DNA of 63,456 nt, filler included, from Dirinaria sp. TL-2023a (lineage: Eukaryota), in the NCBI GenBank assembly GCA_051941275.1. It is 12 parts of 12 records of this genome, joined end to end, with 100 filler letters (N's around TTAATTAATTAA, not from the genome) between each part and the next. Parts side by side here need not be neighbours in the genome. Positions count along the whole stretch, not along the records: positions 47,776 to 52,943 come from JAVEBF010001709.1; 11 more parts are not named here. One strand, written 5' to 3'. The notes under the pieces are model-generated. The model saw only the letters and a list, made by a program, of their open reading frames with translations. It had not been told where the DNA came from and did not search any database. Position 1 is the first letter of the stretch; each line of letters opens with the position of its first letter. The translations under genes were made by a program, and so were the position numbers. Below are positions 5,238-52,943 of the stretch, in pieces.

Positions 5238-5337
5238 NNNNNNNNNNNNNNNNNNNNNNNNNNNNNNNNNNNNNNNNNNNNTTAATTAATTAANNNNNNN
5301 NNNNNNNNNNNNNNNNNNNNNNNNNNNNNNNNNNNNN
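5238..5337. other. Artificial contig linker (N44-TTAATTAATTAA-N44)
   Basis: Exactly 100 bp; six-frame stop palindrome between N runs. Confidence 0.99.
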
Positions 5338-45907: not shown

Positions 45908-46983
45908 ATGGACAAAGCACCTTTCTCCCAGGAAATTGAGCTTGATAGCCAATTGCAAATCGATTATTCCAAAGTACCGCTAAGGCTATGTTGTACCAAT
46001 CACAAGTACACTGCCCTCCCAGGACAGCCCCGAGTTCACTTAGATTCCAATGAGCTTGATACATACTTAGCGAAAGAGCTGTCAGTTCCCGAACTCGACA
46101 GACTGGCGCCAAAACTTTGGCTGGTATAAGATAGTGCTCATGAGGTCGAGGCTTGAGACGACTATCTAACACGTGCTAAAAGGTCTCCACACCTCGAAGC
46201 TCGCACATTTCACCCTTGCATCATCAGGCTGTCAGGGGACGGACTATCATAGTGACCGAGCGCCCACAGTTACATCTGGTCTGGTACTACGATCGAATAT
46301 TTATCAAGCCCATTCCAAGATATCTGCTATCATGTGCATTCTGGCATTATCTGGCATCCCAACCTCCTCAGGTACGAACGGCGGCCATTGGATTCATGCG
46401 GTCCTACTCCTATCTTGTATATTCCGGGATCGATTTCAAGCTTGCTGTAGAGAAAGGCCTGTTACCCAGTGATACGCGCACAGCCGCTGGCGAGGATAAA
46501 ATTACTTGGAACTCCTTTGCGAGGCTGATAGCGTCCTTCGAGAAGTATGGCGATGAGGATGTTTCGCCGAGATATCACTACGGCGAACTTCGACTCTCTC
46601 GGCTGAATTTCTATTCTCGCATCTTCTTAGGAAAGCTGACGTTCCACCACATTGATGCCCAGTGGGGAGCCTTCTTGAACAGAGCCATCGCGCCATTCAT
46701 CGTGGTGTTCGCCGTTGTTGCCGTTATCCTCAATGCCATGCAAGTTGAGCTGGCCGTGCAGAATTGTAACAAAGTGCAGTCTTCCTGGGCTAAGTTTGCA
46801 AACGCCTCTAAATGGCTAGCGGTTGTCGTTCTAATTTTCGTTATGCTTGTGATCGTATTTATCTCCGTTCTTATTACATTCATGTTCTTCCACGATCTTT
46901 GGTTTGCGAAGAATGTCATGAGAGGAAAAAAGAAAAACTTGCCTGGCACGTCTTGGAAAACGAAGAAATCAGGTGTCGTTTGA
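45908..46983 (+). CDS. DUF6601-family protein with two C-terminal TM helices
   Basis: Two exons. EL.VPELDRLAPKLWL|..SPLHHQ.VRGR.I.VTE.P.LHLVW..DRIFIKPIP.YL, GFMRSY..L, RYHYGELRLSRLN, hydrophobic ..ILNAMQVELA. Confidence 0.85.
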
Positions 46984-47775: not shown

Positions 47776-47800
47776 ATACTGACCAGCTTTCTGCACACAG

Positions 47801-48704
47801 AAAATCGGACGTCGGTAGTGATCGGGACCCAGCAGTCTTCTTCAATGACTTTTGGAATTGTACGAGATGGCCGTCTTGCGACCAATTCTTAATAATCGAT
47901 TGCTGCTACGCTGCGAGAGCGTTCGTCCGGGAGCCTACTGGAAAACAGAAATTCGAGATACTTTCGTCTGCTGCAGAAAAGGATATAGTGCCTTCACCCA
48001 GGCAGCCTGGCTCATTCACAACATGCTTGACTGCTACCCTTCGAAAACTTCTCCAGGATAACGCAAAAGGATTTTCCACCTCTCAGATATATCGTGAGCT
48101 GTACCACCACGAGGGTATCTCCAAAAGACCTTGGCTGTTTGATTCAGCGCGCCAAGATCATGGCAAGATTTGGCTTCGGCCACAAAGACCTACAACGTCA
48201 CAGAGCCCTCAGGAAGAACTTGGAGAGACCCGTGTAAGCCTGACGCTTAGGCTGCAGAATACACCGGATGCTCTTACCATACTGAACCAAGTTGCCTTGA
48301 AATTGCAGTATCTACCTCACGTGGATCAGGTGAAATTTGAGAATCTCTATGCTCCAAAGCGGAAGATCGAGAAGCTGCGAGGATTCCTGCATCAGGTCCA
48401 CAAGCTGCGGCCTCTAGTCAGAAAATTACACGCAAGGCGTCGAATGAAACGGATTCGCGAGATGTTGACCAAAGAGGACTCCAAGACCTTCGGACGAAGC
48501 TTCGCGAAATTGTTACTAGAATTAGGGGATAACCATGGTGCATACGATTGGAGCAGTGCCATGTTTAATCATGTCGACCATCACGGAGCGATCGTGAGGT
48601 CCTCTTCTCATCTCAGATCCAAGTCCCCAACTTGGCCGCTCCCGCCCCAACCTCAATCTTCCAATATCACGAATCCTTCCAAACGAGTCCGACTTGATGC
48701 ATAG
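47801..48704 (+). CDS. Caspase/metacaspase-like (clan CD, peptidase C14-like) protein, last exon, 5'-truncated
   Basis: After a CTGAC..CAG acceptor the frame reads ..SCDQFLIIDCCYAARAF..KFEILSSAA..PGSFTTCL..LRKL (DCC at 47898-47906) and continues into ORF 47988..48704. Confidence 0.78.
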
Positions 48705-49244
48705 GAGAAGACTTCTTGCGGGAATAGATCTTGCTAATCATTAATCATGTACATTTACAAACACTATCATTCCTGGTTTATAAGAGGGGTATGGTATTCC
48801 ATATGAAGGCGCTCGATTCATTGTTTCGGTGGAGGGCAAAAATTAATGGTGTGACACGGTGTGAGGCTCCCAAAAGTACCACGAGACTAGCAATATCCGA
48901 CTAGAATGTTGATGCAGCGTTGCTTCAAATATATTCGAGCGGGTGCTTCAGCCTAGGTAATAATGCTCATGATCTGATCGATGGCTGCCTTGCGATAGGA
49001 AATGAGTCATGGCATGCAGGGCGGGGTCATCCGCTCGAATCCAAGCCCCTCAATCCGAAGTCTCAGCCTCATCAAGGCATATAAGTATGGTTCAGGCCGA
49101 CGGCAAGGCCAGCACTGGGTAAGTAGATAAATTATAAAGAGTAGCGTGGGGAGGCACAAGTTTCAGTTGTCTCAGTGCGCATTCGCTGCCTTGCCGAGAA
49201 CCAGTCTATTCACTACGAACCCTCGACCCCAGTTCACTACCACC

Positions 49245-49685
49245 ATGGCCCACGTTTTCGCAGAGGTATGCTTTCTTTACCTGTGATCCAGGCGTGACCC
49301 CAGAAATACGAGTACAAACAGGCTTGCTGACTCTTCGTCTCTCAGGGAAGTGGCACGAAAGAAGGTCAACAGCCAGCTGGTCCTGAATGGAGAAGCAAAG
49401 TGGACCCTAAGGATCCGAGTCAAGTTGCCGAGGTAAGGAGACTACGAGATGATCCCTGCCAGAAGGAAGTGTGAGATGGTCTAGATTTCTGACGTGACAT
49501 CTCAGTTCCCTGAGATGCCTTACGAAGAAGGCTCTACAGCCACCGTAACCGGGGGAAGAGGGAAGAAGATCCTTGTGATCCACAAGAAGTTCCCGAACGG
49601 GAAGTACCAAATGAAAGATGGGGACAAAATCCTGCCGAAGCTATACGATGAGGCGGATCTTTCCCCGGCCACGAAGTTGGTTTGA
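49245..49685 (+). CDS. 95-aa three-exon microprotein with a putative SH3/Tudor-like beta-barrel
   Basis: CACCATGG start context and TATAAA at 49133. Exons 49245-49265, 49346-49432 and 49506-49685, both introns phase 0 with GTATGC/GTAAGG donors, CTGAC branches and CAG acceptors. Confidence 0.8.
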
Positions 49686-50111
49686 TTGGAAAGTGGAGGG
49701 GCGGCGGGATCCATTTCGAGACGGGCGTAGATGGAGGCGTTTAGGAAATCCAAGGTTTCGATTTCCGGCGACGAAATAGTTGGCTCAGAACTCAGACGCA
49801 ATGATTCTGATTGAAGCTTTCAAATGCAAGGCCTCCTTGTGATCTCGCGTTCGAGCCTGTAAAGAGGAAAGCCTTCAGCTGGGGTGAAAACTCCAGGCCT
49901 GATCGATTGGTGGCACCGAGAAGGCTCCGGGGGGCTGTGCAAATGGTCTCAGCCTCGTGCTAGTGGTGGGGCCCCTCGGCCGACCCTCCCATTGGAACCC
50001 ATTCCCATCCCACCTATCCAAGTACTTCATCTCAGCCGCACCCATTTAACCCATCGATCATGGACCTGGTGCCCTTCAGTTCAATGTGAATTGGATCATT
50101 GATGGTGAACC

Positions 50112-51751
50112 ATGGCCCGAGATACCCCATCATCCACATTATCTTCTCCTACAATTGTCCAAGAATCATCTCCAAATCCCAATGACCACATTATTAATGT
50201 CGAGGATGATCATGAAGAAAGCCAAAACAAGGAAGGAAATACGGACAGTGAAGAGGATAGAACCGTCGTGAGCCAAGGTAGACCATTGAATTTGTGGTGT
50301 GTACTGTCCCTCTAATAAGCGCAGAACCGTCTGAGAAAACACGGCATTCAAAGCTGTGGAGCTACATTCAAGGGCTTCCCGCTCCACTCCGCTCTCCTCG
50401 TACCTTCAAAGAGTACAGGGAGGAAGACGGCAGAAAGACGCTAGTCCAACGAAGTACGGGCAGTTCCTCATGCTCCATAATTTCTGAACTAATCCGCCAA
50501 AAGTCGATGATCATCCGGAAGGATACCCTCAATTTGCAGCTTTTCTCGACAGCGATGCGAATTTCCTGATCTGCCGAAAATTCGGATGGCTCAGAAGTAG
50601 AGTGCTGCTCTCTCGTCAAGATGAACTGAATCAATTAGAACGACGGCTCCTATCAATGGACGACGAGGACAAAGAAGAATGTCCCTTGGCGCTCCGGTCG
50701 AGAAAGATCGACGATGGTCGTCAAGATATAGAAGAAGAATATTCTAGGAAAACCCTTTTGCAAGAAATAGATGATAAGCTAGAAAAATATGGTGGGCTCT
50801 CCTGTCATTGATCTTGGACAGGCTTCGGCTGACTGAATTTCAGATCAATTGGTTAGCAGAATGATATCTTATGTATCGTTAAAAAAGCCATCTTCTAGGA
50901 ATTACGGCAGCTTCAACAATTGGTTTTGGGACAGAAAACCACTAACTCGCGAGGAAAGCCGCTTCACTCAGTGTGGTGATGATCTCGTTGCACTTTCTAC
51001 GGGCCAAGAAGACGGCTGCTTCGACGGCATGGTTGAAGATGCGCTTGATTGGTTTCCACGGTCACTCGTCAAGGTACAACCATGGCTGTTGTGCCTAGTA
51101 CATGGTTTGGAAACCTGCTGACTTAGAACTGTAGTCTATCTTCACTTCAGCTGAGCAACGTAAGAAGACTGACGACAAATATGTCCACTTGTACAGTAAA
51201 CGCCGGATCGACTTTCTCGTCCGCGTCATCCTCAGCCTTGTGACCGTCCTTCTTCTATTGCTTCCAACAGCACTTCTGTTTATGGTACCGGAAAGCAACA
51301 AGATTAAACTCGTCACCATTTTACTCTTTACTTTGCTCTTCAGCGCGGCATTGATGGTTTTTACCAAAGCCAAAAGGCATGAAATGTTTGGCGCCACCGC
51401 TGCGTGAGTCCTCCCAATGACTTTTACTTTTCTCAAACATGTCTGTCTAGAAGTGTCTTCATATATTTGGGAGAAAGAAAAAGGGCAAATAATCGTAATA
51501 TCTAATATATAATATCTGTTGGACGATGTAAGCAGCAACGCTGTGCTTGACTTTTCGACAAGATATGTCTAATTTATTTCAACCAAATCTGTTTTTGTTA
51601 TGTCAAGAAAACAATACTCTATATATCCTGCTAGTTCTATCCTACATCAATCTTGAAACTCATCAAAAATCACCACTGACCACCTAATCACAGCTACTGC
51701 GCCGTCCTGGTCGTTTTTATCGGTAATTTCGTGCCAAACGGACTGAACTGA
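50112..51751 (+). CDS. DUF6594-family membrane protein
   Basis: Spliced. Signature GYPQFAAFLDSD.NFLI.RKFGWL.SRVLL..QDEL..LE..L..MD; DDLVAL; C-terminal TM helices ending EMFGATAA|YCAVLVVFIG. Confidence 0.9.
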
Positions 51752-52943
51752 CATCCGCCAACCGCATCCGAAAGCAATTCACTTTTTGGAGTAAACCGCA
51801 CGTTGGAAAAGTCGGTTCACTAAAAAGTCTAAAATAGTCATTGGTGGCAGCTTCTTGTACAGAGCCGCTAAGAGGGACATATTTGTAAGCGACAGGCGGC
51901 CTAGCAATGAACGCAAAAGAACGAGTCACGAAATTAACGCTGACGAACATGGATGACGACGAGTTAACATGAGCGACAAGATATAATGATTGTAAACCGA
52001 GACTAGCATTACACAAAAATCGAACGATGGGACTAATCCTATCACCGCTTTCACGATCCTCAAAAAAACGAGCAACTGATTTTCGCCAACATATTCACTT
52101 TTTGTCCCTGCTACTATCATTACTTGCTACTCCCACCTCCCTTCCCCTATCCCTCCTCTATATAGCGTGTGTGGCTCCCAAGCATACCCCCCACTTTTTC
52201 CAAGCAAAGTGACTATATTGGCTTTGCCATGAATTTCCCCCATTTTTTTTTTTTTTTCTTTTTTTTTCTTTCGGGCAGCAAACCTGAAAACACGCGATTT
52301 GACCGTAGAGCGAATGTCAATTATCGATTTGCGAATACGCACAACCTTATGATAGGCTTCTTGATACATTGGTTATGGATCTGCAAACCCTTACCTTGCT
52401 ATATGTGTCATTCTTTCCTGGTCGTAGAAAACTCCCATTGACTCGAATCCGGTTGGCTTTGGTTTAAGTCCATGTAAAAAGACTCTTCTTCCCGACGGGC
52501 GTTATCCAAGTCCAGTTTGAAAAAACAACCGTTTCGCAGCTTCCTATCAACTATTCTCCTTCCAAATTCCTTCATCTGTGCTTGCATTCCTTCTTTTTAC
52601 TACATGTAGATAGATCTTGAGGATTGTGCAGAAGATATAGAGCGAAAAATGGAGATATTTTGGTCTATTTTATAGAGATTGTGGATGTTTGAAGGTCTGT
52701 GAGGAGGGGCTGTTAGAAGGAAGGGGAAGTTTGGGATAGGTACCGTACTCTAGATTGTGTATAGATCTAAAAAGCCACATAACACACAAGTCCGAAATCG
52801 GATACAAAGCAGAGGAAATCACTTATTTCCTCAAATCTACAAGAACTTAAGGAACGTAAGGTAGTTATAGCGTCAATACAAAATCACCCTCAAGCAGAGA
52901 AATTCTATCATCCTAACCCGCTCATGCCTGCATGCCCTAAAAT

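Follow-up and report, generated by a model that had tools for sequence, protein, structure and literature searches.

We describe a compact three-gene cassette in the lichen-forming fungus Dirinaria sp. TL-2023a (GenBank assembly GCA_051941275.1; the genus belongs to the class Lecanoromycetes), which lies within a 63,456-base stretch of DNA that was analysed as a whole and is referred to here as the window. The cassette encodes a predicted caspase-fold cysteine protease of the Peptidase C14 type, a protein of 95 residues, and a predicted membrane protein of the DUF6594 family. All three genes are expressed and spliced in a relative whose sequence is 96-97% identical, and sequence comparison indicates that the linkage of protease and DUF6594 genes persists across deep divergence and a change of gene orientation. 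It is highly probable, in our judgement, that the three genes are a real functional unit. Our full reading, that they form a conserved, expressed three-gene ascomycete module in which the protease licenses the DUF6594 protein by proteolysis, is given a probability of about 0.4.

Gene models and transcript evidence

The window consists of 12 contigs (about 5.2 kb each) linked by N44-TTAATTAATTAA-N44 spacers (22 runs of N between positions 5238 and 58301), and because these are separate contigs, no two genes separated by a spacer are neighbours. The three genes are all confined to a single contig of 5,168 bases (JAVEBF010001709.1, window positions 47776-52943) and all lie on the plus strand. Their features are as follows, where HMM stands for hidden Markov model, AF2 for AlphaFold2 and pLDDT for predicted local distance difference test.

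47776-47800, plus strand: 3' end of the C14-like intron in which the contig begins; it includes TACTGAC, which resembles a branch point, and a CAG acceptor
47801-48704, plus strand: last exon of the predicted caspase-fold (Peptidase C14-like) cysteine protease gene; family HMM E 4.6e-120
47886-47915, plus strand: catalytic-strand motif FLIIDCCYAA, with D-C-C at 47898-47906 and the second Cys at 47904-47906
48702-48704, plus strand: protease stop codon TAG, closing the open frame 47778-48704
49245-49265, 49346-49432 and 49506-49685, plus strand: small-protein gene, 95 residues in three exons; both introns are GT..AG in RNA contigs
50112-50277, 50325-50453 and 50504-50791, plus strand: first three of six exons of the DUF6594 gene (379 residues; PF20237); introns confirmed by RNA
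50844-51073, 51135-51403 and 51694-51751, plus strand: last three of the six exons of the DUF6594 gene (PF20237); introns confirmed by RNA
50112-50452, plus strand: N-terminal tail of the DUF6594 protein, residues 1-98, an acidic low-confidence tract (pLDDT <50 for residues 1-129)
51198-51730, plus strand: three predicted C-terminal membrane helices of the DUF6594 protein (AF2 secondary structure, mapped to coordinates)
51752-52067, plus strand: 3' untranslated region of the DUF6594 gene, at least this long, as an RNA contig extends to 52067

The RNA data came from four runs on one lichen metatranscriptome sample, and the comparison was made with contigs of the relative mentioned above. All seven predicted introns, two in the small gene and five in the DUF6594 gene, appear in the relative's RNA contigs as GT..AG joints at the predicted borders, and because splice joints are present, the signal reflects RNA and not contaminating DNA. 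RNA contigs also carry a loose end of 252-255 nt that is joined exactly at 47801, from which it follows that this position is an exon start, that the Dirinaria contig opens inside an intron, and that one or more upstream protease exons exist in the relative's mRNA. One RNA contig spans 47801-49263, and others of 2,094-2,178 nt (47801-49798) run from the last protease exon through a 540-nt spacer into the fully spliced small gene. The protease and small-gene transcripts could therefore be overlapping or bicistronic, an assembled contig being no proof of either arrangement. The RNA contigs leave 49852-50024, 51409-51581 and the region beyond 52100 without cover, and such gaps in assembled contigs carry no weight.

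A first-pass annotation, made from the DNA alone, had proposed three same-strand genes on one contig with a protease segment starting at 47801, a 95-residue microprotein, and a DUF6594 protein with several membrane spans and an acidic, disordered N terminus. The gene models and spliced introns bear out this layout, 47801 has turned out to be a true exon start, and the small protein and DUF6594 protein match their descriptions in the respects given below.

A predicted caspase-fold protease

Besides the Cys strand and the remainder of the fold, the 308-residue protease fragment encoded in the window includes a helical region that is conserved and a C-terminal tail that is basic; it has no membrane helix. 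A search for its homologues gave 135 cluster representatives, of which 57 matched at E up to 1e-30. Asp41 and Cys43 are invariant in alignment A1 (20 sequences), and the second Cys of the D-C-C motif aligns with the sole Cys retained where relatives have D-S-C or D-T-C. The clan-CD Cys strand with EIL.S and GSFT..L elements, which the first-pass annotation had singled out, is present as described: both elements follow FLIIDCCYAA, and E60, S79, F80, T81 and L84 are invariant or nearly so in 20 relatives.

Among 239 collected relatives, 49 contain both a YYGGH[GA] motif and the D-[CST]-C motif in this order, at a spacing of 35-88 residues, in most cases 49. In the remaining 190, at least one motif is absent or the order is wrong; most of these are short (about 250-400 residues), and we read the short ones as open reading frame (ORF) calls that miss upstream exons. 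When related loci were scanned at the DNA level, the Cys motif was present in 18 of 18 (two of which, L017 and L020, are bacterial) and the His motif as well in 15, the His pattern being unmatched in L013, L017 and L025. In the 14 of these 15 that are fungal, the His motif lies about 45-90 codons upstream of the Cys motif, introns counted, and in 11 related loci an exon break falls at one family position between the His and Cys parts, which would account both for the short ORF calls of the relatives and for the exon start in the window.

The AF2 model was made on the Endocarpon pusillum orthologue P0153 (538 residues, 54% identical; 55-sequence alignment A2) and not on the window copy. It has a mean pLDDT of 72.6, exceeds 90 over residues 60-270, and includes a confident C-terminal helix at 512-537. 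A Foldseek comparison of this model with the Protein Data Bank (PDB) returned metacaspase 9 (E 6e-9), CED-3, caspase-9, a Candida metacaspase, the catalytic subunit of the glycosylphosphatidylinositol transamidase, and MALT1. Metacaspase 9, CED-3, caspase-9 and MALT1 matched with probability 1.00, and the matches to metacaspases, caspases and MALT1 range from E 6e-9 to 1e-6 at a sequence identity of 10-16%. According to the model, the protease family has a caspase/metacaspase fold, and the motif conservation indicates that it carries a conserved His-Cys pair. The expectation of a caspase fold with a catalytic His has thus been upheld for the fold, in the Endocarpon orthologue, and for the His in the 49 complete relatives; in the window copy itself, the His exon lies off the contig.

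At the level of family profiles, the gathering cut-off of Pfam Peptidase_C14 (PF00656; 21.4 bits) is reached by 10 of 25 homologues and a match at E up to 0.1 by 14 of the 25. No match to CHAT (PF12770) was obtained at E up to 0.1 in the same 25 homologues or in the window fragment. The family resembles the metacaspases, caspases and paracaspases (clan CD, C14) in its predicted fold, in the placement of His-Gly and Cys on the expected strands, mostly 49 residues apart, and in its invariant Asp. It is unlike these members of the clan in having its own N-terminal helix, a C-terminal helical region (LQYLPHV...), often a C-terminal membrane helix, and the D-C-C-Y-A-A motif. At the position two residues ahead of the catalytic Cys, Arg/Lys-specific metacaspases and paracaspases have Asp, and caspases have Gln; because Asp is invariant there in the present family, we would guess that the protease prefers a basic P1 residue.

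The protease tail varies among relatives, with a confident C-terminal membrane helix in P0153 and many others, hydrophobic tails in L013 and L006, and a short basic tail in the window copy, L001 and P0006. We take the basic tail of the window copy (48660-48704) to resemble a classical nuclear-localisation signal.

The DUF6594 protein

Pfam DUF6594 (PF20237) matches three exons of the third gene with 74.3, 36.1 and 73.8 bits against a cut-off of 30, covering profile positions 1-232 of 238. The 379-residue protein P0142 is 97% identical to the window DUF6594 protein, and P0141-P0145 all carry PF20237. The nearest ESM Atlas clusters are DUF6594 itself, from Ascomycota.

An AF2 model of this protein (18-row alignment A3) is all-helical with a mean pLDDT of 58.8. 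Residues 1-129 are disordered (pLDDT <50), two long helices follow at 117-155 and 180-205, and three hydrophobic helices at 293-321, 326-348 and 353-373 make up the C-terminal part, the third of them encoded across a 290-nt intron. The N-terminal tail and that of the Endocarpon orthologue align, with shared motifs that surround the acidic tract or directly precede the domain. In L006 and L013, too, acidic tracts lie ahead of the DUF6594 domain.

When the model was compared with 48,161 PDB representatives by VIA-align, the only matches were helical hairpins and bundles of a generic kind (best Z 7.8), and no fold was assigned. The idea that the DUF6594 protein is gasdermin-like or HeLo-like was rejected, as there was no match of any kind; the gasdermin family is not among the Pfam matches of this gene at E up to 1. 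A prediction of the complex of the window protease fragment (residues 9-308) with P0142 and P0001 scored 0.01 against a mark of 0.34 in a run without controls and carries no weight either way.

Recurrence of the protease-DUF6594 pair

Related loci, 29 in number, were found on metagenome contigs with the protease family alignment, and linkage is accordingly counted from the protease side. A tblastn search with the window DUF6594 protein gave a match in 9 of the 29 (L001, L002, L006, L012, L013, L014, L018, L023 and L027), in each case adjoining the C14-like match, and Pfam confirmed DUF6594 in all six loci submitted (L001, L006, L012, L013, L018 and L027; 150 of 154 ORFs scanned). All-against-all blastn placed L001 and L002 in one group, L003 and L005 in another, and likewise L009, L010 and L028; L012, L014 and L023; and L019, L020 and L021. 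L017 and L019-L021 were rejected as fungal family loci on account of their bacterial neighbours (GlmU, IS1595, AraC, MatE; 149 of 179 ORFs scanned) and excluded from the counts. Most other loci are too short to judge, and L003/L005 and L008 end without the downstream flank in which the tandem type has its DUF6594 gene.

Of the 8 independent fungal loci whose flanking sequence is long enough on the relevant side, 7 have DUF6594 next to the C14-like gene. In the tandem type (the window, L001/L002, L006 and L013), the DUF6594 gene lies downstream on the same strand; in the divergent type (the L012/L014/L023 group, L018 and L027), it lies upstream on the opposite strand. The protease ORFs of the divergent loci match the family HMM at E 1e-15 to 1e-27 and are thus true members of the family. 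Protease identity between lineages ranges from 25 to 46%, and that of the DUF6594 domains from 32 to 61%. Over 21 non-independent pairs from 7 loci, the two identities rise and fall together (Pearson 0.84), which suggests that the two genes diverged together through about four deep lineages with one orientation change.

An eighth positive case comes from Endocarpon pusillum, a member of Eurotiomycetes and thus of a class other than Lecanoromycetes. Its locus tags, known here from source names alone, place GJ744_009029 (C14-like, 538 residues) and GJ744_009027 (DUF6594), whose contigs are given with equal length, at the spacing seen in the window, with a single tag between them. Compared with the window, the Endocarpon protease is 54% identical and the DUF6594 protein 67% over the whole alignment or 57% over one exon. 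The Endocarpon protease is closer to the window's than are most named Lecanoromycetes homologues (36-49%), which could reflect paralogy or transfer between lichen fungi. All 16 organism-named homologues come from genera that we take to be lichen-forming (Endocarpon, Caloplaca, Xanthoria, Cladonia, Lasallia, Lecanora and others), in a list that is biased towards close relatives.

Several of the related proteases carry additional domains. At L025:46-2184 (plus strand), one ORF joins the Cys half of a C14-like domain, recognised by the family HMM at E 1.3e-16, to a HET domain that Pfam matches at E 3.5e-28, an architecture of caspase fold plus HET that, to our knowledge, has not been described before. 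The proteases of L012, L018 and L027 extend into a kinase-like C-terminal region of about 450 residues that is 48-54% identical among the three:

L012:10262-11918, plus strand: kinase-like extension of the protease
L018:10330-11718, plus strand: kinase-like extension of the protease
L027:10185-11630, plus strand: kinase-like extension of the protease

The motif HKELKSxN, which resembles a kinase catalytic loop with Glu where kinases have Asp, occurs in L012 and L018, and L012 has a weak DUF7580 match (E 3.3e-4). Two distant relatives of the window protease, P0136 and P0139, also match DUF7580, with only P0139 (29.9 bits) above the 27-bit cut-off. An ankyrin-repeat gene flanks DUF6594 in L012 and L027. 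The HET fusion and kinase-like extensions form a sequence context that leans towards those typical of fungal death or defence genes. Separately, the protease at L009:9764-10813 scores 27.7 bits with Pfam C14, and its downstream neighbour is a long, charged, coiled-coil-like ORF without a Pfam family.

The small protein

P0001 is the same 95-residue protein as that of the window with one difference, and a search of 5.8 billion proteins gave 5 relatives among 6 candidates. The last exon (49506-49685) codes for the conserved core, which is about 56 residues long. In 6 of the 7 positive loci, a small ORF lies between the protease and DUF6594 genes, on the DUF6594 strand and just upstream of it, about 350-600 nt from the DUF6594 coding sequence; the seventh locus has a candidate recognised by eye only. 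The first-pass annotation had made its proposal depend on the recurrence of the trio in other genomes, and with these ORFs beside the adjoining gene pair, an arrangement of this kind does recur. The positional small ORFs outside the window are as follows.

L001:7200-7556: tandem locus
L006:2501-2680: tandem locus
L013:11610-11819: tandem locus
L012:7901-8230, minus strand: divergent locus
L018:8825-9043, minus strand: divergent locus
L027:8860-9084, minus strand: divergent locus

The ORFs of L012, L018 and L027 are 58-62% identical as protein, and because the loci do not align as DNA, we take these ORFs to be coding. In alignment with the window clade, they have in common FP..P at the start, a turn rich in G, [KR]Y.[ILM]K..DG in the centre and E.DL at the end. 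A combined profile of the window clade and the divergent loci was run against 9,412 ORFs; its best matches outside the training set were the ORF of L001/L002 (E 0.017) and that of L013 (E 0.37). With a profile of the divergent loci, the positional ORFs of L001, L013 and L006 took the top three places among 5,024 ORFs (hypergeometric P 6e-6). Three positional ORFs stood in the top 10 of each of the other three lineage profiles (P about 0.001-0.002). The L006 ORF is supported by its rank of 3 in one profile and by inspection by eye. Together these comparisons make it probable, though short of proven, that the small ORFs are homologous across lineages.

As to the nature of this protein, the strand-like pattern gives, by eye, the impression that it may have an SH3/Tudor-like fold, a small beta-barrel of five strands. 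Pfam gave nothing above cut-off for four of five window-clade small proteins scanned (P0002 was left out), and Integrase_p58_C appeared at E about 0.03-0.04, far below the Pfam cut-off, in two of six positional small ORFs. PDB sequence searches with the small-protein and DUF6594 profiles returned nothing below E 0.29, and ESM Atlas similarities of the small protein reached at most 0.82, to unnamed viral clusters, which is the noise level.

Proposed mechanism and alternative explanations

Our results lead us to propose the following sequence of events. The protease would be held near or at the membrane, as the C-terminal membrane helix of many relatives suggests. On a trigger, it would cut either the DUF6594 protein itself or the small protein attached to it, and the cut would change the state of the DUF6594 membrane protein, whose predicted architecture combines a cytosolic helical domain with an acidic N-terminal tail and three C-terminal membrane helices. 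The likeliest outcome is that an activity of the cell-death or defence type, either membrane-damaging or signalling, would be licensed; the small protein would act as a regulator or adaptor. That DUF6594 is a death or defence effector licensed in this way by proteolysis is drawn by analogy with known systems and is put forward tentatively, at less than even odds. A more far-reaching version, in which DUF6594 proteins form a third class of fungal membrane executioners beside the HeLo/MLKL-like proteins and the gasdermins, kept latent, licensed by a dedicated metacaspase-like protease with an SH3-like small protein as inhibitor or adaptor, and serving responses of lichen-forming and other ascomycetes to non-self or to symbionts and pathogens, appears doubtful to us.

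A number of observations weigh against the proposed module and mechanism. On the side of the protease, Pfam assigns no family to the window fragment at E up to 1, and the His-bearing 5' exon or exons of the window copy lie beyond the contig end. On the side of the presumed target, the acidic tail is conserved in character only, and no universal basic/acidic cut site was seen by eye just before the DUF6594 domain in 8 sequences; pore formation by DUF6594 is unsupported, because its model is poor (mean pLDDT 58.8) and there is no informative fold match. As for linkage, in the fungal lineage of L009, L010 and L028 a DUF6594 gene is absent both from the 10 kb upstream of the protease and from the 4.3 kb downstream of it, and the 7 positive loci amount to about 4 deep lineages, so that there are few independent events and inherited synteny contributes. 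For the small gene, an HMM built from the window-clade small proteins alone finds no relative in the 29 loci, single-lineage profiles reach only E 0.5-20, and a direct comparison of the window and divergent clades by hhalign yields P 0.065, at a probability below 1%.

The alternative that competes most directly with proteolytic licensing is that the module is real and non-lethal, the protease and DUF6594 protein working as a pair in processing or signalling at the membrane, with the small protein in the role of adaptor; for example, the cytosolic coiled-coil domain of DUF6594 might be set free to act as a signal, or DUF6594 might serve as a membrane receptor or anchor that positions the protease. 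The linkage evidence fits this explanation equally well, and the C-terminal membrane helix of the Endocarpon protease, the hydrophobic tails in L013 and L006, the predominance of long helices in the DUF6594 domain and the transcription of all three genes in an apparently healthy thallus sample are all in keeping with it. What speaks against it is that Pfam detects no DNA-binding or enzymatic domain in DUF6594 and that the HET fusion and kinase-like extensions of relatives lean towards death or defence. In most respects, non-lethal signalling or anchoring fits the data as well as the licensing mechanism does, and nothing separates the two; we regard the non-lethal explanation as possible, if somewhat unlikely. 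It is also conceivable that the C14-like protein is a non-catalytic scaffold, given that CYAA follows its Cys where metacaspases have CHSG, and that Pfam C14 scores in the homologues are low (18-34 bits). However, His and Cys motifs occur in 49 of 49 complete relatives at the spacing given above and both were found in 15 of the 18 loci scanned, and this makes a pseudoprotease quite improbable.

Two further explanations concern the cassette and not its mechanism. If the functional unit were only the protease-DUF6594 pair, the small ORFs of the lineages would be unrelated and the 95-residue gene a lineage-specific insertion; the few relatives found among 5.8 billion proteins, the failure of the clade's own HMM in the 29 loci, the hhalign result and the Pfam result all agree with this. 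In contrast, the positional ORFs rank reciprocally best across four lineage profiles, the combined profile reaches E 0.017 for L001 among 9,412 ORFs, and position and strand relative to DUF6594 are constant, as are the FP..P start and the ..E.DL end, so that a two-gene unit appears unlikely. Inherited synteny without functional coupling would, in turn, explain why the positive loci fall into about four deep lineages and why one protease lineage is without DUF6594, and the closest loci (the window, L001 and Endocarpon) could owe their gene order to descent. Yet the linkage persists at 25-35% protease identity and survives the inversion from tandem to divergent order, the flanking genes differ among loci, and the DUF6594 HMM finds no further, unlinked copy in about 300 kb (240,652 bases of loci plus the 63,456-base window). 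We therefore consider mere synteny highly improbable, the least probable of the explanations weighed here.

Relation to known systems

Effectors of regulated cell death in fungi include HeLo-like proteins, gasdermins, and enzymes of the patatin or TIR type. Apart from the CHAT proteases of gasdermin clusters, we know of no fungal caspase-fold protease with a clear partner.

The module most closely recalls the HET-Q1/HET-Q2-like gasdermin clusters, which are two- or three-gene clusters of filamentous ascomycetes with a protease gene beside the gene of a membrane-acting protein, some of the proteases being caspase-related and carrying sensor or kinase-like domains (Clave et al., PNAS 2022, PMC8851545; PMC12881547). 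About 80% of 1,884 fungal gasdermin genes are given there as lying near an S8 or CHAT protease gene, with cleavage shown for two pairs (PMC8851545; review PMC12881547), and in the pertinent passages of a survey of fungal NOD-like receptor effector domains (PMC9815663) and of a 2025 review (PMC12881547), CHAT and S8 are the only proteases named with gasdermins. In contrast to these clusters, the partner here is a helical DUF6594 protein with three predicted membrane helices and not a gasdermin, the protease family matches Peptidase_C14 and neither CHAT nor S8, and there is a third, small gene.

A comparable logic is found in prokaryotes, where a caspase-like protease is encoded beside EACC1, described as a small, non-enzymatic, membrane-acting protein licensed by one cut, with the protease recombined with varied sensor domains (bioRxiv 10.1101/2025.11.14.688446). 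Unlike the EACC1 modules, the present module is eukaryotic and consists of intron-bearing, separately transcribed genes, and the likeness is one of logic; no kinship of the DUF6594 protein or the small protein with EACC1 or Pepco was seen, no test having been aimed at it.

Clustering of a protease gene with that of a membrane-acting partner is thus already known, and what is new in the module is its DUF6594 partner family, its C14-type protease and its third small component. A link to protease genes is absent from the DUF6594 family descriptions that we found. In the literature searched on fungal caspase-like, gasdermin, incompatibility and lichen topics, with subscription papers and supplements outside the search, there was nothing on the three-gene module and no mention of "DUF6594", "PF20237" or "DUF7580".

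The proposal offers a testable hypothesis for DUF6594, a large fungal family without assigned function, and for an orphan clade of C14-like proteases. If it were true, the large DUF6594 family would gain its first function, and the logic by which a protease licenses a membrane protein in bacteria, fungi and animals would extend to a new effector. The apparent concentration of the module in lichen-forming fungi raises a possible link to symbiosis or to non-self control at the level of the thallus.

Other features of the window

The contig that precedes the cassette in the window, and is unlinked to it, contains a 267-residue ORF with a hydrophobic C terminus (46180-46983, plus strand) that matches Pfam DUF6601 (E 2e-70), another uncharacterised fungal family. 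On the contig of the cassette itself, a long simple repeat of the poly-T/poly-A type lies downstream of the DUF6594 3' untranslated region (52166-52441 and 52230-52276).

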